The notes: generated from the sequence alone by a model not told the origin. A stretch of DNA of 64,000 nucleotides from GCA_000165345.1 CM000429.1:64001-128000; one strand, 5' to 3'; numbered from the stretch's first letter, positions 2,630-55,700 are shown. A program made the numbers and translations.

Positions 2630-4096
2630 ATGGAGCAAATAAAAGTAACAGTCAAGTGGAACGTGAAAACCTTTGAAGATGTTGATCTTGTTTTTTCAAG
2701 TCCTCTTTCTGAGTTTAGGGAGAGGTTAAGCAATTTGACAGGGGTACCTGCTTCTAAGCAGAAATTAATGTCCCAAAGAGGTGTATTAAGAGATGGGATG
2801 GATTTAAATAAGCTTGGTTTAAAGCCTGGATCAAAGATAGTTCTTGTGGGTACTGCAGAAGGAGGTGAATTGAAGGCTCCATCAGAGAAAACTATATTTT
2901 TTGAGGACTTAACTTCGGATGAAAGGGCAAAGATCTTGCATGAAAAGGAAATAGTACCTCTTCCAGTAGGCCTAGAGAATCTGGGAAATACGTGCTATTT
3001 AAATTCAATAATTCATATGTTGAGAAGTATCCCTAGTTTTTTACAGATTTTGAGAAATAGCAATTTGAGCTCATCTGAAAGAACAAGTTCAAGTTCAGGA
3101 AATTCAATTAAATTTCTCAATTCGTTTAAACAGTTAATGGACAAGATGGACGGAAGCATTGAAAGAGTGGTTCCAGGAGAGTGTGTTGACTTATTTAGGC
3201 GTCAGTTCCCCCAATACAGTACAACAACTGGAGGAGCTTTTGCGATGTACCAACAACAAGATGCAGAGGAAGTTTTGGGAAGTTTGCTTACATTGTTTAG
3301 AAACGAGCTAGACGGAAAAGATGGAGACGATCAGACAATAGGGGATATATTTCGTTTTAGAATGAAAACTAAATTTAAAAATACTGCATTAGAGACTGAC
3401 GAGGAAGTTAAAATGGAGGAGAATTATAAGCTTATGTGTCATATGGGAACTCAATTGAATCCTGTAGACTTCTTAACTCAAGGTATTAAGCTCTCATTAG
3501 ATGAGAAAGTTGAGAAGAAATCTTCTGAAACAGGTATCGACTCTATTTATCAAAAAACTTCGGAAATAGATTCTTTGCCACCATATTTACTTGTACAGCT
3601 TGTACGATTTGAATGGAAAAAATCTAGTGAGATTGCAAGAACAGAGGCTACTAGAGCAAAAGTATGTAGAAAGATTGAGTTTTCCCAAAATTTAGATCTT
3701 TATGAATTTTGCTCTGAAGATTTAAAAAAAATCCTTAATATTGGAAGAGATATCTCAGAGAAAAAGAAGAGTAAAGCCATAGAGAAGCCTGATCAAGAAG
3801 AACAGAAAATGGAGACAGAGTTATATACAGATTGTCCTACAGGAGTATATGAACTCGAATGCGTAGTTACTCACCAAGGTCGTACTGCCGACAGTGGGCA
3901 TTACGTTGCTTGGAGATATTGTCCAAATGATCGAGAATACATTATTAAATTTGATGACGACAAGGTCTCGAGAATAAAAGCCAAGGATGCAGATCTTTCA
4001 GGTGGTAGATCTGACTACCACATAGCTGTAATGCTTTTATACAAAAAAACAGTAATTAAGGCTTCAGAAGAGGAGATGGCCACATTATTAAGTTAG
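2630..4096 (+). CDS. USP14: Ubiquitin carboxyl-terminal hydrolase of the USP14/Ubp6 type (N-terminal ubiquitin-like domain plus USP catalytic domain); single exon.
   Basis: N-terminal UBL (KVTVKWNVKTFEDVDLVFSSP...GSKIVLVGT), Cys box GLENLGNTCYLNSIIHML, His box YELECVVTHQGRTADSGHYVAWR. 488 aa, similar in size to Ubp6. Confidence 0.9.
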   Translation: MEQIKVTVKWNVKTFEDVDLVFSSPLSEFRERLSNLTGVPASKQKLMSQRGVLRDGMDLNKLGLKPGSKIVLVGTAEGGELKAPSEKTIFFEDLTSDERAKILHEKEIVPLPVGLENLGNTCYLNSIIHMLRSIPSFLQILRNSNLSSSERTSSSSGNSIKFLNSFKQLMDKMDGSIERVVPGECVDLFRRQFPQYSTTTGGAFAMYQQQDAEEVLGSLLTLFRNELDGKDGDDQTIGDIFRFRMKTKFKNTALETDEEVKMEENYKLMCHMGTQLNPVDFLTQGIKLSLDEKVEKKSSETGIDSIYQKTSEIDSLPPYLLVQLVRFEWKKSSEIARTEATRAKVCRKIEFSQNLDLYEFCSEDLKKILNIGRDISEKKKSKAIEKPDQEEQKMETELYTDCPTGVYELECVVTHQGRTADSGHYVAWRYCPNDREYIIKFDDDKVSRIKAKDADLSGGRSDYHIAVMLLYKKTVIKASEEEMATLLS

Positions 4097-9006: not shown

Positions 9007-11469
<2,463 letters not shown>

Positions 11470-12268: not shown

Positions 12269-13462
12269 ATGAGCACAAAAGAGAATGTCATAGTCTATTG
12301 GGAGAAACAAGGAAACGACAGGATGTGTGCTCTACACTGTTTAAACTCAATTCTCCAAGGACCATATTTTGATGAAGCTTTTCTCTCTAAGATTGCTTAT
12401 GAAATAGATGACATGGAAAGACGCTTATTAGAAAAAAGTAACTCAACATTTAAGACAATTTCCGATAATAATTCTCAAAACGCTTCCTACGATGGCTTCT
12501 TCTCAATCATGGTTCTTCAGGAATGTTTACAAAGACATGGGTACTCTTGTATACCAGCAGCAAATCCGAGAGTTCAAGATTATATTTTGTATCCATCGTC
12601 TTGCTGTGGTTATATCATTAACTCATCAGAACACTGGACTTCAATAAGATGCGTCAAAGGAAAGTGGTTTAATTTAGATAGTCTTAAGGCTGCTCCTATT
12701 CACATTGATTATTTCGAGGTTTCAAAGTACTTGCAAGAAATTATGTTCTCTGGAAAGAGTGTTTTTGTTGTACAAAAAATTCAGAATGAAACTGATTCAC
12801 ATTCAATTCCTTTACCTGATCCCGACCCATTCCTTAGACCAATAAAGAACAATGGTAAACAAAGATTTTATCTCACTGCTTCAGAAATTGAGAACCTTGT
12901 TTTGGAGAAACAAAAAGAAGAAAATAGAGTATCTCAAATGGGTGACGAAACCCCAAATAAGAATTTTATGTATTCTAAGAAACCGGTTGAATACTCATGG
13001 CCAACTTCTGGCGGAAATGTGTTGCAGTCTACATTAAATAATGTTGATCAATCTAATGAAATGACATCCGAAGAAAAAGAACTTGAGAAAGTATTAAGGG
13101 AATCTGCAATAGAGTTTGCTAAGAGTATTCCTCTTCCAGATGAACCCCCTGCAGATCATGTCAATTCTATTCAAATTCGTGTCAGGAGCAAGGTTGGATC
13201 ATCTTTTGTCAGAAGGTTTGACAAGACTAATTCCTGTAAGCATCTATTCTCTTGGATCGAATATGAAATGGCACTATTGGGGAATTCAATTCATGGTAGC
13301 CCATATTCTTTCGTTTCTCAATTTCCCTATCTCAAAGTTTCAAAATTTGATGAAAATTCAATTAAAATTTCGAGATCTGATATTAGTGAGATAATTCTTA
13401 ATTCACCAACTTTCAATGACATTGGTATTAATGAGAACACTCTACTACTACTTAATCTTTAA
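12269..13462 (+). CDS. Josephin-domain deubiquitinase (ataxin-3-like) with a UIM-like motif and a C-terminal UBX-like domain.
   Basis: Josephin catalytic region QGNDRMCALHCLNSILQGPYF...DGFFSIMVL...EHWTSIRCVKGKWFNLDSL...SVFVVQK aligns with ataxin-3 (QEGSLCAQHCLNNLLQGEYF...SGFFSIQVI...EHWFTVRKLGKQWFNLNSL...SIFVVKG). UIM-like EEKELEKVLRESAIEFAK. C-terminal IQIRVRSKVGSSFVRRFDKTNSCKHLFSWIE...FPYLKV fits a UBX fold pattern (R..G...RRF....L..FV...FP). Confidence 0.8.
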   Translation: MSTKENVIVYWEKQGNDRMCALHCLNSILQGPYFDEAFLSKIAYEIDDMERRLLEKSNSTFKTISDNNSQNASYDGFFSIMVLQECLQRHGYSCIPAANPRVQDYILYPSSCCGYIINSSEHWTSIRCVKGKWFNLDSLKAAPIHIDYFEVSKYLQEIMFSGKSVFVVQKIQNETDSHSIPLPDPDPFLRPIKNNGKQRFYLTASEIENLVLEKQKEENRVSQMGDETPNKNFMYSKKPVEYSWPTSGGNVLQSTLNNVDQSNEMTSEEKELEKVLRESAIEFAKSIPLPDEPPADHVNSIQIRVRSKVGSSFVRRFDKTNSCKHLFSWIEYEMALLGNSIHGSPYSFVSQFPYLKVSKFDENSIKISRSDISEIILNSPTFNDIGINENTLLLLNL

Positions 13463-48050: not shown

Positions 48051-48548
48051 TTAAATGTATGATGCACATAATTGGCCAGTTGGCTTTGTAGTACCCATAA
48101 TGATACCAATAATGACACCATAAATGGCCAAAGCTTCACCGAAAACCAAAATCAAAATCATACCAGTAAGAAGTCTTGGTTGTTGAGCAGCAGCTCTAAC
48201 ACCAGCATCACCGACAATACCAATAGCAAGACCGGCAGCTAAACTACTGAGACCAATAACCAAACCAGCGCTCATTTGAGCATAAGCAGTGTAAGCAGAG
48301 TACAAATTTGGTTCTCCCATCTGGAAGAAAATGACCAAAGAACCAATCAAACCATAAATACCCAAAATACCTGCCATAACAGCTGGAATAATTGATCTCA
48401 TAATTAAATCTGGTCTCATTACGGCCATAGATGAAATACCAACACCTGATTTAGCAATTCCATAAGCTGCTCCTAAGTTTGCAAAAATCAAGCATCCTGC
48501 AATTCCCAGAAATCCAAAAAATAAACTGTTTGGGTCACAAGTGATCAT
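48051..48548 (-). CDS. VMA3: V-type H+-ATPase 16-kDa proteolipid subunit c.
   Basis: Four TM helices: GAAYGIAKSGVGI, MRPDLIMRSIIPAVMAGILGIYGLI, and the proton-binding Glu in helix 4 (FGEALAIYGVIIG). 165 aa. Confidence 0.9.
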   Translation of the reverse strand: MITCDPNSLFFGFLGIAGCLIFANLGAAYGIAKSGVGISSMAVMRPDLIMRSIIPAVMAGILGIYGLIGSLVIFFQMGEPNLYSAYTAYAQMSAGLVIGLSSLAAGLAIGIVGDAGVRAAAQQPRLLTGMILILVFGEALAIYGVIIGIIMGTTKPTGQLCASYI

Positions 48549-48717
48549 CTTTTATCTACCAATATACAGCTAATTGCCTTTCAGCGATTATTGTTTAATT
48601 ATATAACAAAGTTCTTGTACTTACGATTCTTAATAGAAAAAAAAATTTCTATATTGAACCAAGCTTGCCTAATATTAGTTAGAATTTGTCTCTTGGGGGT
48701 ACATTATTGGATAAATC

Positions 48718-48742
48718 TTACCGCCACAATTTGGCGGTAATG
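48718..48742. promoter_or_regulatory. Inverted-repeat element TTACCGCCACAATTTGGCGGTAATG in the divergent V-ATPase c / NOP10 promoter; a second TTTGGCGCC...GGCGCC box lies at 49087..49110.
   Basis: A perfect 9-bp inverted repeat (TTACCGCCA / TGGCGGTAA) around a 6-bp spacer, followed by ctttggcgccagacatacggcgcctc, which is adjacent to the NOP10 ATG. Confidence 0.45.
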
Positions 48743-49180
48743 ATTCAATTATTCCTCAAAGTTGCTCAAATTACTTATTAAATATTCCTTAAAATGAACT
48801 AAAATTGTGTCCCAGATTAATTATTTTTTACTGAAAAATCAAATTTATTTTATTCACAAAGGTCGATATTTTTTAATTATTTTTTTGTTTTTAATTTATC
48901 AAAATTCATATTTTATTCTTTGTTTTTTATGCTGATATTTATATATATTTCATCTTCTTAAAGTCTACTCACAATTTTCTCTACAATTTTAAACTAGTCG
49001 TATGATCATAAATCTTCTATTCTTTTGAATCATTTGAATCATTTCGAGAAGTTTTTCGTTCTATATGAAATTCTATTGCTAATAACTTTGGCGCCAGACA
49101 TACGGCGCCTCAATAATAACATTGAAATACGATAAATAACGCTGCATTTTGATTAGGAAGTTACGAATTAATAAATAAAG

Positions 49181-49420
49181 ATGTTTTTGAGGTTTTACAA
49201 GAACGAGAAAGGAGAGAGAGTTTATACATTATCGGTAAGTTTTTGATTTTTTTTTCTATTATGAATGCTTAATGATATTGAAAATTAATAGGCAGTGAAT
49301 AAGGAGGGTGAAATCACATTTTCAGCTCATCCTGCAAGATTTTCTCCTGATGACATTTATTCATCTCAGAGAATTGCATGCAAAAAGAGGTTTGGACTAT
49401 TACCAACTCAGCGTCAATAA
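49181..49420 (+). CDS. NOP10: H/ACA snoRNP protein NOP10, 2 exons: 49181..49234 and 49292..49420; intron 57 nt.
   Basis: [18 protein letters not shown]|[42 protein letters not shown] matches NOP10 ([40 protein letters not shown]...[10 protein letters not shown]). Donor TCG|gtaagt, acceptor ttaatag|GCA. Absent from the ORF track. Confidence 0.75.
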
Positions 49421-49775
49421 AATGGGTGAAGCTTTTGCAAATAGAGAGTTTAGGTTAAAGTGAATACATTCCTATATAATGATCGGGAATATTTCATTGT
49501 TATAACGGTATTCATCGATTCTAACAGGATACTTTATAAACAATACATAGGAATATCACTGGAAAAAAAATAATATTTAATAAATTGAATAATTTCCTAA
49601 TATAGATAAAAATAATTAATCTAATTATTATTATTCTTATTATCATCTATCCATTCTGTCTAATTTTTGTATGAATTCCTTATATTTAAATGAAATCACA
49701 ATATATTGAATAATCAAACTTATTCTTATGTTCTTGAAAGTATATTATACCTTTATAATAATTATAAAAATAATA

Positions 49776-49812
49776 CAATAATAACAATAATAATAATAAT
49801 AATAATAATATT
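49776..49812. repeat. (AAT)n microsatellite in the promoter region of the second proteolipid gene.
   Basis: aataacaataataataataataataataatattgatattaatattaat. The track ORF 49706..49951 (TIITIIIIIIIL...) is just this repeat read in frame and is not a gene. Confidence 0.8.
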
Positions 49813-49878
49813 GATATTAATATTAATAGTGATTATAAACACTAATAGTAATAACAGTAAGATTAGTTATATTAATCA

Positions 49879-50376
49879 TTACTTAATAGGTACACAAAGA
49901 TTATTCGCAGAAGGGCTGGAAATGAGTACCAATGAAACAATAATACCATAAATTGCAAGTGCTTCACCAAAGATAAGTATAAGCATTGAAGCAACAAATA
50001 ACTTAGATTGTTGAGCAGTACCACGAATTCCTGCATCACCTGCAACACCTATAGTAAAACCACTAGCAGCACAACTGAAACCAGAGATTAATCCAGCAGC
50101 AAGATGACAATATCCCTGATATAATGAATAGTCTGTCCTTATTTGAGAACAAATAATGACTCCCACAATTAAACCATAAACTCCTAAAATACCTGCCATA
50201 ACAGCTGGAATAATTGATCTCATTACTAAATCTGGTCTCATTACACCACATGATGCAATTGCTAATCCTGCTTTAGCTGTACCATAAGCTGCTCCAAAGT
50301 TTGATAAAGCTGTAGCCAAAGTTGAACCAAGCATTCCAAATAAAGTTGCTGTTGGTGTACAAAATGGAGGTGCCAT
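49879..50376 (-). CDS. Second V-ATPase proteolipid paralog (c-like, 165 aa), same orientation as the first and 1.3 kb away.
   Basis: GAAYGTAKAGLAIASCGVMRPDLVMRSIIPAVMAGILGVYGLIVGVII and helix-4 FGEALAIYGIIVSL. Four TM helices with the Glu in helix 4, so c or c'-like rather than the longer c'' form. N- and C-termini diverge from the 48051..48548 copy. Confidence 0.85.
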   Translation of the reverse strand: MAPPFCTPTATLFGMLGSTLATALSNFGAAYGTAKAGLAIASCGVMRPDLVMRSIIPAVMAGILGVYGLIVGVIICSQIRTDYSLYQGYCHLAAGLISGFSCAASGFTIGVAGDAGIRGTAQQSKLFVASMLILIFGEALAIYGIIVSLVLISSPSANNLCVPIK

Positions 50377-52350: not shown

Positions 52351-52769
52351 CGTTACTGTAATTTAATTTTTTAATAATAAATTGTGTGGAATAAAGAAAA
52401 ATTCATTATTGGTTGATTAATATATGAAGAAAAGGATCCAAAAAGGATTCACCAATTATTAAAAAGTTGTGATTTATATCTATGCTTCTTTTATAAGAGT
52501 TTTATCAATTATTTAAACTTTTTAAGAACTGTTTTTATCATTTAATAAGTAATTTATTATAAAAAGAGTTTGCTGAAGAAATTATTTAAAGCTTCTTATA
52601 TTATAGAGTTGAAAGAAATACCAATAAATAATTATTAATTTGTGGCCTTTTATGATTCTGAAATGCAAGAATATCAATTATATTCAAGTAATTAAAGCAT
52701 TATTTAAAGTCAATGCACTTTTAGTGTAATTGGTTGAATGAATATATATTTGGAAAAGCAATCAGAAAA

Positions 52770-55700
52770 ATGAGTGTTTTACAAATCATTCTTTCAATAA
52801 TATTAATAATATTCTCTCTATTATGTATATTTGTCCATATTTTAAAACAATTTCTTCAAAAAAAAGGCTTTGAAGTTTCTTTTTCTGGATTTTTTTCACT
52901 TGGAAATTTGAAAATAAAGATACTTGAAAAATATCTTAAAAAATATGATAATATTAGTGGATTCGAATTTTTTCTTTCAAAAATTTCAATCAGATTTCAA
53001 TCTTGGAAGCTTAAGTTTATTTTATATGAAAGTAAATGTATTTGTTTTATATTAAATGGAAATCATTTCAAAAACAAACAATTTGATCATCATCTTTCCC
53101 AATATTCTAGATTACAAAATCATTCATCTAGAAAAACTAATATTGGTACTGATGATAATAGTATTGGAATTATTCGTAATTTAATGTTAATTGTTACAGC
53201 ACAAATTATTTCCAGAATTATTTTATTTGAACTTGAAAATATTCAATTCCAATTTTATATGGTTGATTGTAAATGTATTGGTAATCATAGAAATCTTAAA
53301 ATTACTCAAGATGGTAGATGTGAAAAATGTGGTATTCAAATGAAGTATGGTATATATTCCAAACTTGATATTAATAGTTTAAGTATATTTCCAAAAGCTT
53401 ATTTTGGTGGAATCATGGTAAATTTTCTAATAAATAATCCAGTATTATACTTGAATCCTATTGAAAATACAATTTCTGAAAAAAGATGTCATACATTTTA
53501 TTTAAATTCCAATAATAAATATAATTCATCATCCAATCATAAAACAAGTATTTTGAATTATATTCTTAATCAGTTTTACATGAAAAATAATAAAACTATA
53601 TCAAAAAAATGCCATTCAAATCAAAATAATTATCCTCCTTTAATTTATATTGATAATAATTTAAATATTAAACTCAAATTAATGCATTCAATGTCTGGAT
53701 CTGATATTAGAGTTTGTATTCTTCGAAATGTGAATATTGAAATGAATCAACTTTGGATTACATTAATACCAGAAATTATTTGTGAACTGGTTTATATATT
53801 TCATACAATTAAATCCAATTTTAAGAATTTGAATAAAATTTCTTTTAATAAAAATAATCTTCAAGTATTAGATCCCAACATTATTAATCAATCTGATCCA
53901 ATTATTAAGTTATCCCCAAAATACCAATTATTAAGTAATAATGTACTTCCAATATCTCCTATTCCTTTAGCATCACCTTCTTCTCCAAGTATAATATCAT
54001 CATCAAACTCATACTCTCATTCTCCTCTTCCTCCTTCATTTGGTAACTTTGAAAATAAAGTCCCTAGAAATAAGAAAAAGCTTATAATGAATGAGAATTT
54101 AGATAGACAACTTCAAATTACCTTCAAAATTTCTCAACCATCTTTAATATTTTGTGATAATACTCAATCTAGCTCAGGTTTTGAGATATTATTTCATGAA
54201 TTTGAAGCACATCTTATAATTCAATATTTTATTGAATATCTTCAAAGTACACTTAAACTTTATAATCAAGATTATGATTTTGAATCTTCAAATTCAGAAA
54301 TATCTGACTTTAATATTATTGGTAATGAATCCAATCATTTTGATTTAGATACAACAGACTTGAAAAAAAAAACTAGAAGAAGCTTAAAACTTGTTTTTGG
54401 AAGTAAGCTTATCTTTGGGAATTCTATTTTATATTTAAACCCTAAAGAAAGCCATTATTTTTCAAAACAAATTATGCCAAATACCATAAAAGATGGAGAT
54501 TTTACCTTTGATCGAATGTTTGTGATTGAACATTATAAATCAATTGTTGAGATTTCTGACAACAATTTTGTTAAGCTTTATTTGAAGAGTTCCATTCAAA
54601 GAATGTTTGGAATATGGAGGGAAAATGGATTTTACCAGAACCTGACTCTATTTCTCCAATTAATTAAGTTTCAAAAGTACCTTTCCAAGATTAAAAACCA
54701 AGTTAATATTGATAATAGTGGTAATAGTAATAACAATAATAATAATAATAATAATAATAATATTGAAAAACCATTCATAGATCAAGCAACTGAAGAGATT
54801 CCAAAATTGCCTTCAAGAGTTGAATTGGAAGATGACGATATTCTTAAAAGTGATTTTCTTATTAAGAATAACAAATACTTAAAAGAGATTATGACAATTA
54901 AAGATTTTGCAGTTAATTTACTCTTTTACCTTGAAATCAAAGATATTACCATTCAAACCAATGATATTAATTGTTTTAACCATGAACTACACATTCTCAA
55001 AAAGAATGATTGCTCTAACAATCATTGTGAAAATTGTTTTATTGAATCCTTTGGTCCAAAAGAAAGGTATGAATGGAGAACTGATTTTGATTATGAATCA
55101 GATACCAAGTTCAATATGAAAATTAAAAAAGATGATAATGATACTGATCATGATAATCATAATGATGACAAGTTCTTCATTTTGAAAATTAATAATTTGA
55201 AGATCTGTAATACATCAATAAATAGAAGTTTCTCAATGCTCTTTTCTGATTTAGATCTTTACAGTATGAATGAATTTATTGATTTGGAAGATATATCTAC
55301 CAAGTATTTAAATTTACCATCATGCTTGAAACATAACCATGATATTTTAGATTTTCAAAAAACATGTATTTATCGTTATGGTTGTTTTGACCAAAGAATT
55401 CAAGTATTAAACTTTGAAATCTCACCAAAAATTAGAGATAAAAACCATTTAGTCAAATTATGTGAATCAATTATTATATCTCCTTGGGATTATAAAAGAA
55501 TTTCACTCAGATTTAAAGGTATTAATGGAAATCTCCATACTTGTTATATTCCAATATACCTTTATATTTTGGGTTGTTTTAGTATTGATTGTCTTGCTCT
55601 TAAAAAGAATAATTTAAACAAAGTTTATTATGGAATAAATAACCAATTTGAAGAAAATTTTGATTTTTATTGTAACCAAAGATTTAATTATTTTGAAAAA

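Follow-up and report, generated by a model that had tools for sequence, protein, structure and literature searches.

Two V-ATPase c-type proteolipid genes flank NOP10 in Cryptosporidium parvum

The window analysed here is a stretch of 64,000 nucleotides from chromosome 1 of Cryptosporidium parvum (GCA_000165345.1 CM000429.1:64001-128000), with positions counted from its first letter. Two genes for c-type proteolipids of the vacuolar ATPase (V-ATPase), named copy A and copy B, flank the gene NOP10 in it. We lean towards the view that they are paralogs resulting from an old local duplication, already present in the last common ancestor of living Cryptosporidium, and that copy B is a second, non-interchangeable subunit found in the same ring as copy A and subunit c''. 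The paralogy of the two genes, their intact fold motifs, their genus-wide synteny, the purifying selection that acts on them, the transcription of both in oocysts and the non-orthology of copy B to the fungal subunit c' (Vma11) are directly supported. Co-assembly in one ring, and a fixed position or copy number for copy B, are inferences that go beyond two conserved and expressed paralogs.

The duplication is already known. It was published as an independent c/c'-like case (von der Dunk & Snel, BMC Evol Biol 2020; PMC7414715) and both proteolipid genes were annotated before this analysis, which makes the locus a documented case rather than a new find. An earlier reading of the window made without database searches (the sequence-only reading) was essentially the published one. 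The vma11/vma3 pair is treated in PMC7414715 as a case of recurrent sequence evolution, with independent vma3/vma11-like duplications in eight lineages (Platyhelminthes, Chromadorea, Blastocystis, Phaeophyceae, Cryptosporidia, Spirotrichea, Oligohymenophorea and Diplomonadida). The entry ‘Cryptosporidia (Cryptosporidium parvum Iowa)’ is among them, and IQ-TREE reconciliation over 210 species placed this duplication in the ancestor of Cryptosporidia. The idea that a second c-type subunit is described only in fungi, from which the sequence-only reading had started, is outdated by this report of at least eight independent duplications.

The features of the locus are the following:

48051..48548, minus strand: copy A, V-ATPase Vo proteolipid subunit c (conservative); intact open reading frame (ORF) of 165 residues with two PF00137 stretches
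48135..48137, minus strand: Glu138 codon of copy A, helix-4 proton-carrying carboxylate; aligned with the helix-4 Glu of yeast Vma3/Vma11
49181..49234, plus strand: NOP10 exon 1, 18 codons; sequence read, spliced product matches PF04135
49235..49291, plus strand: NOP10 intron, 57 nt, GT..AG; sequence read
49292..49420, plus strand: NOP10 exon 2, 42 codons plus stop; sequence read, spliced product matches PF04135
49879..50376, minus strand: copy B, divergent c-like proteolipid; intact ORF of 165 residues with two PF00137 stretches
49963..49965, minus strand: Glu138 codon of copy B, helix-4 proton-carrying carboxylate; aligned with the helix-4 Glu of yeast Vma3/Vma11

Both ORFs are found exactly where two minus-strand, four-helix proteolipids of 165 residues had been called in the sequence-only reading. 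The spliced NOP10 gene that it had placed between them on the opposite strand is present as two plus-strand exons, whose 60-residue product carries a Nop10p domain (PF04135, 6.5e-20, residues 3–52). Copy A has 100% identity to the C. parvum Iowa II ‘vacuolar ATP synthetase subunit’ (EAK88511.1 / CPATCC_000379), while the public records of copy B are EAK88586.1 / XP_627910.1 / QOY43576.1. In a table of genes published in PMC3542205 the product names of copies A and B belong to cgd1_520 and cgd1_540, and Table 8 of PMC12246861 gives cgd1_530 as Nop10; copy A is thus cgd1_520, NOP10 is cgd1_530 and copy B is cgd1_540. Note that public records label copy B as ‘possible signal peptide’ or ‘signal peptide-containing’. 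Since the amino terminus of copy B aligns with helix 1 of subunit c, this label is probably a misread transmembrane helix 1.

Protein features of copies A and B

Each copy features two stretches with similarity to ATP-synt_C (PF00137; E 2.8e-28 and 1e-27), the hairpin that, in duplicate, forms the 16-kDa V-ATPase proteolipid with its four helices. Copies A and B share 51% identity across 158 residues (E 3e-53; 49–51% over the comparisons made). Four hydrophobic stretches are found in copy A; in copy B three are clear and the one for helix 1, which aligns with helix 1 of subunit c, is weaker. In both copies Glu138, in the motif FGEALAIYG, is the sole membrane-embedded carboxylate, and it is kept in every Cryptosporidium ortholog of A and B compared. 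The common core motif, the helix-4 Glu and the differing amino and carboxyl termini described in the sequence-only reading are all seen in the pair.

The two copies align end-to-end with solved V-ATPase c chains in phmmer searches of the PDB (E 1e-41 to 1e-50), and both are nearer in sequence to c than to c' or c''. The best scores against c, c' and c'' are 2.4e-50, 6.6e-37 and 7.8e-18 for copy A, and 1.2e-45, 1.6e-39 and 2.8e-14 for copy B, respectively. Judged from these features, A and B are V-ATPase 16-kDa c-type proteolipids, predicted to be members of the Vo rotor ring.

Assignment of either copy to c'' was considered and rejected. The essential Glu of c'' is located in the helix equivalent to helix 2 of c. 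Helix 2 of A and B has no acidic residue, so the c''-type pattern is absent; in addition both proteins have 165 residues and match c'' weakly.

Conservation of the locus and selection on the two genes

The gene order around the pair is conserved and reads zf-C2H2_jaz gene, B, NOP10 (opposite strand), A, a gene for a protein of 531–594 residues, and Exo5. This full order is found in C. serpentis, C. muris, C. andersoni, C. parvum, C. hominis and C. tyzzeri. In C. bovis and C. xiaoi the order, B–NOP10–A included, was traced up to a gene that is cut by the end of the locus (product length given as 542 residues), and the fetched stretch does not include Exo5. Orthologs of A and B with very few substitutions are also found in C. 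canis, C. ubiquitum, C. felis, C. ryanae, C. meleagridis and the chipmunk genotype I, both proteins being near-invariant across more than 12 species. A Nop10p gene coding for 60–64 residues occupies the equivalent place in C. muris, C. andersoni, C. serpentis, C. tyzzeri and C. hominis. The NOP10 gene models of C. xiaoi (L020 4398..4859) and C. bovis (L021 4398..4877) code for 79 and 84 residues, respectively, which is probably an exon-calling difference.

Because the B–NOP10–A order is found in both intestinal and gastric species, the duplication predates the radiation of the genus. The duplication and its arrangement are older than the gastric/intestinal split of Cryptosporidium and do not result from a recent species-specific event.

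Both genes are under strong purifying selection and neither of them shows decay. In copy A, 10–21 synonymous and no non-synonymous differences separate the three gastric species (ratio of non-synonymous to synonymous divergence, dN/dS, 0.00); the corresponding counts for copy B are 7–15 and 0–3 (dN/dS 0.00–0.07). When C. parvum is compared with the gastric species, copy A has a dN/dS of 0.06 and copy B one of 0.12–0.15, with dN of 0.10 and 0.19, respectively. The copy B protein evolves about twice as fast as that of copy A. Identity of copy A reaches 67–71% to coccidian c and 64–66% to c from Plasmodium, Vitrella and dinoflagellates, while copy B has at most 55–61% identity outside Cryptosporidium among the matches listed. 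By these comparisons copy A can be regarded as the conservative copy and copy B as the divergent one.

Departures were scored against the consensus of the 38 other sequences, most of them alveolate, in a 46-sequence alignment. Thirteen genus-fixed departures are found in copy B and nine in copy A. Those of copy B lie in helix 1, in cytoplasmic loop 1 (GLAIASCG vs the consensus GVGISSMG), in helix 3 (GFSCAASGF) and in loop 2 plus the start of helix 4 (QQSKLFVAS). The faster evolution of copy B and its less hydrophobic helix 1 could be taken to mean that it works outside the V-ATPase, as a separate membrane proteolipid such as a pore or a fusion factor. This is very unlikely, given that Glu138, its motif and the helix-2 core are kept in copy B throughout the genus and that selection on the gene is strong (dN/dS 0.06–0.15).

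Relation to fungal c' and origin of the duplication

The yeast Vma3 and Vma11 sequences used in the comparisons were verified against PDB chains. A neighbour-joining (NJ) tree was computed for 46 taxa and 164 columns with 500 bootstraps. Maximum likelihood (ML) was run with own code (Gonnet250-derived exchangeabilities, +F, four gamma categories) on 22 taxa and 165 columns; it compared four hand-made topologies and is a rough test.

The clades of A and of B are each recovered in 500/500 NJ bootstraps. Vma3 and Vma11 group together in 462/500 and B groups with Vma11 in 0/500, while forcing B beside Vma11 costs 18 log-likelihood (lnL) units in ML (z 2.25). On this account copy B is an analog, not an ortholog, of fungal c'. 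That Cryptosporidium kept an ancestral c/c' split, with copy B as a true ortholog of Vma11, is hardly credible: the few helix-3 states that they have in common (H91, F100 and S105, in A numbering) agree with it, but the NJ and ML results are against it, the PDB score of copy B is better for c than for c', and Vma11-like residues show no overall excess in B (10 concordant vs 11 discordant sites, scored with yeast only). Two interface substitutions are described in helix 1 of the fungal proteins, V15F in c' and M22I in c (PMC7414715), and the alignment shows that neither Cryptosporidium copy reproduces them. At the V15F site copy A has F, like most alveolate c, and copy B has M or L; at the M22I site copy A has L or V and copy B has T. 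The c/c'-like arrangement outside fungi envisaged in the sequence-only reading holds as an analogy and does not hold as orthology. Comparison with Vma3 and Vma11, which that reading had proposed, sets B apart from Vma11 in support of an independent origin, but does not recover A and B as sisters.

An A+B clade appears in 1/500 NJ bootstraps. Instead, NJ places B beside a single gene of the gregarine Porospora and A among coccidian and haemosporidian c. The topology with B beside Porospora is favoured in ML by 9–10 lnL units, a difference that is not significant (Kishino–Hasegawa test, KH, z 1.3–1.75), and has a support of 0.88 vs 0.02–0.09 by resampling of estimated log-likelihoods (RELL). As the A+B clade is recovered by neither method, the timing of the duplication is uncertain. 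The event could be older than Cryptosporidium, the B lineage being shared with gregarines through the Porospora ortholog and A being the other ancient copy, with differential loss elsewhere. Both tree methods point in this direction, as do states common to B and Porospora in helix 1 (LAT) and loop 1 (AIAS). Such an early origin is nevertheless unlikely. Aside from the lack of significance of the likelihood difference, the bracketed residues of IIP[A]VMAG and ALA[I]YG are common to A and B, are present in <10% of the other 38 sequences and occur in 0 of those displayed. Neither NOP10 nor another c gene lies within 4–8 kb of the Porospora gene, and an A-like Porospora protein is absent among the best 120 matches to A. 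A Cryptosporidia-specific event was inferred with IQ-TREE and a larger taxon set (PMC7414715), and B is a long branch, which makes attraction artefacts likely.

Gene conversion was considered as a source of the residues common to A and B. The two genes have an exact nucleotide match of 38 nt (48364..48401 in A and 50186..50223 in B), which covers the codons for MRSIIPAVMAGIL. This match is seen in C. parvum and also in C. tyzzeri, and a run of this length has P about 0.0005 by synonymous codon resampling; C. bovis, C. xiaoi, C. muris, C. andersoni, C. serpentis and GCA_001593445.1 have a longest A/B run of 14–23 nt. The stretch is also highly conserved between species and between copies. It may be a short gene-conversion tract, or simply codons that are conserved everywhere.

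A further side observation concerns the protein P0002 (276 residues) of the dinoflagellate Polarella glacialis, which contains about 1.7 head-to-tail copies of subunit c. This internal repeat accounts for its unusually high scores against A and B, and the gene model probably results from the merging of a tandem array.

Expression and composition of the ring

Both genes are transcribed in oocysts, as seen in the CpArray15K microarray data of Zhang et al. 2012 (Additional file 2; PMC3542205), in which eleven V-ATPase genes are found. The normalised oocyst signals are 88.25 for cgd1_520 (copy A), 47.34 for cgd1_540 (copy B) and 11.4 for cgd8_4790, a third proteolipid gene annotated elsewhere in the genome; the resulting ratio of about 7.8:4.2:1 comes from different probes that are only roughly comparable. 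Genes cgd1_520 and cgd1_540 are in the top oocyst expression class and respond similarly to ultraviolet light (UV). The other V-ATPase subunits are single genes in that table, which does not show a gene for subunit a and may be incomplete. Short ENA contigs that include copy A match the genome exactly and lack poly(A), so they are uninformative about transcription.

The pair is thus found throughout Cryptosporidium in the same arrangement, under purifying selection and with both members transcribed. It follows that the copies are neither recent, redundant and species-specific, nor is one of them decaying or silent; these are the two outcomes that the sequence-only reading had named as contrary to its proposal. 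Of that proposal, a lineage-specific duplication with a subfunctionalised c-ring, the duplication and the differentiation of the copies fit the evidence, whereas subfunctionalisation within one ring is conjectural.

In the reading towards which we lean, copy A would be the canonical subunit c and would probably fill most positions of the proton-carrying ring. Copy B would be a second ring subunit with altered contacts to its neighbours or to subunit d, keeping Glu138 and the conserved helix-2 core, and c'', probably the product of cgd8_4790, would complete the ring. Both copies would have been retained because each had given up some of the contacts that the ancestor made with its neighbours (duplication, degeneration, complementation), so that they would no longer be interchangeable. 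A more specific proposal, which is tentative and somewhat doubtful, is a rotor of three proteolipids (A, B and c'') where B evolved independently of fungal c' to occupy defined positions. Several copies of B per ring may be present, as suggested by the A:B mRNA ratio of ~2:1.

Several observations weigh against a single mixed ring of this origin. The trees do not unite A and B, copy B has no overall excess of Vma11-like residues, and the fungal helix-1 interface substitutions are reproduced by neither copy. The A:B ratio, read from poorly comparable probes, is unlike the prediction of one B per ring. The sequence-only reading had proposed a search of the rest of the genome for a c'' gene; cgd8_4790 is probably such a gene, being identified by product name only.

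The main rival explanation is that A and B are alternative isoforms of separate rings, which would serve different compartments (for example plasma membrane or feeder-organelle region vs endosomal or vacuolar membranes) or different life stages. The changes of copy B in both cytoplasmic loops and in helices 1 and 3 could alter contacts with Vo subunits or sorting factors, and an A:B ratio of ~2:1 fits two sizeable pools better than a subunit present once in ten. Multi-gene c families with differential expression occur in ciliates, plants and nematodes, which counts in favour of isoforms, as do the several multi-copy c lineages catalogued in PMC7414715. This explanation is weakened by the co-expression of A and B: both are in the highest expression class in one stage, the oocyst, and behave alike under UV. 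Moreover there is no obvious partner isoform, with other V-ATPase subunits being single genes in the possibly incomplete table (no subunit a gene). Separate rings are therefore a possibility to which we give little weight.

Other features of the window

The window is AT-rich, with a GC content of about 0.23–0.41. An imperfect (ATA)n microsatellite of ~33 units (49755..49854) is located between NOP10 and copy B, a short way downstream of the copy B stop codon. An ORF of 932 residues (37219..40017, plus strand), for which no Pfam match was found, lies where the GC content of the window is highest (0.41). It has repeats at 37791..38094 and 38634..38706 (an 81-bp repeat in 3.8 copies and TTCTGA in 12 copies). 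The TTCTGA array begins at position 1416 of the ORF, near the number in the name of the C. parvum multiple-locus variable-number tandem-repeat analysis (MLVA) marker cgd1_470_1429, and the ORF is probably cgd1_470.

A single ORF of 3007 residues spans 52734..61757 (plus strand) and has no Pfam family at E<=1e-5. Very large orthologs (about 2650–3000 residues) are found at the equivalent position in all Cryptosporidium loci fetched. Three ubiquitin/segregase genes are present within 11 kb at 2630..4096 (plus strand), 9007..11451 (minus strand) and 12269..13462 (plus strand). They code for a UCH deubiquitinase with an amino terminal ubiquitin domain, CDC48/p97, and a Josephin deubiquitinase fused to UBX, a p97-binding module.

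Comparison with known systems

The fungal c/c' pair is the textbook case of a molecular machine that gained a part when a gene duplicated and the two copies lost complementary contacts. A second, independent occurrence of this event in Cryptosporidium, if true, would show whether its outcome is predictable. A ring of three proteolipids, if true, would replicate, naturally and independently, the fungal ‘neutral ratchet to complexity’ in a parasite that is amenable to genetics. Solved rings have the composition c8 c'1 c''1 in yeast and c9 c''1 in mammals; a ring with several copies of B, if true, would be unlike them. The V-ATPase proteolipid ring also belongs to a class of drug targets, and a divergent parasite-specific ring subunit could matter if essential.

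Copies A and B resemble subunit c (yeast Vma3, human ATP6V0C) in their 165-residue length class, four helices, two ATP-synt_C repeats and single helix-4 Glu. Copy B differs from it by an identity of ~55–61% outside the genus and by its 13 genus-fixed departures. Subunit c'' (Vma16 / ATP6V0B) is a member of the same proteolipid superfamily with weak matches to the two copies (E 1e-13 to 1e-18), but its PDB chains have 180–213 residues and an extra amino terminal helix.

Fungal c' occurs once per ring, in a fixed place beside c'', and is not interchangeable with c. Like copy B, it is a second four-helix c-type paralog beside c and c'', the divergence within the two pairs is similar (A/B 49–51% vs Vma3/Vma11 55% identity), and a few helix-3 states are common to copy B and Vma11. 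Copy B differs from it in its independent origin, in the lack of the helix-1 interface substitutions and of overall parallelism, and in the A:B mRNA ratio of ~2:1 in oocysts, which is not suggestive of one B per ring.

The fungal c' was analysed by Finnigan et al. 2012, as summarised in PMC7414715. In the latter study the recurrent changes are found near subunit interfaces, and interface degeneration is suggested to have raised the complexity of the V-ATPase in the lineages concerned, as in fungi. The present locus is the Cryptosporidia case among its eight lineages with c duplications. To that record the present analysis adds the tandem layout with NOP10 in between, the conservation in gastric species, the dN/dS values, the look-up of oocyst expression, and the caveat that the monophyly of A and B is recovered by neither NJ nor ML.

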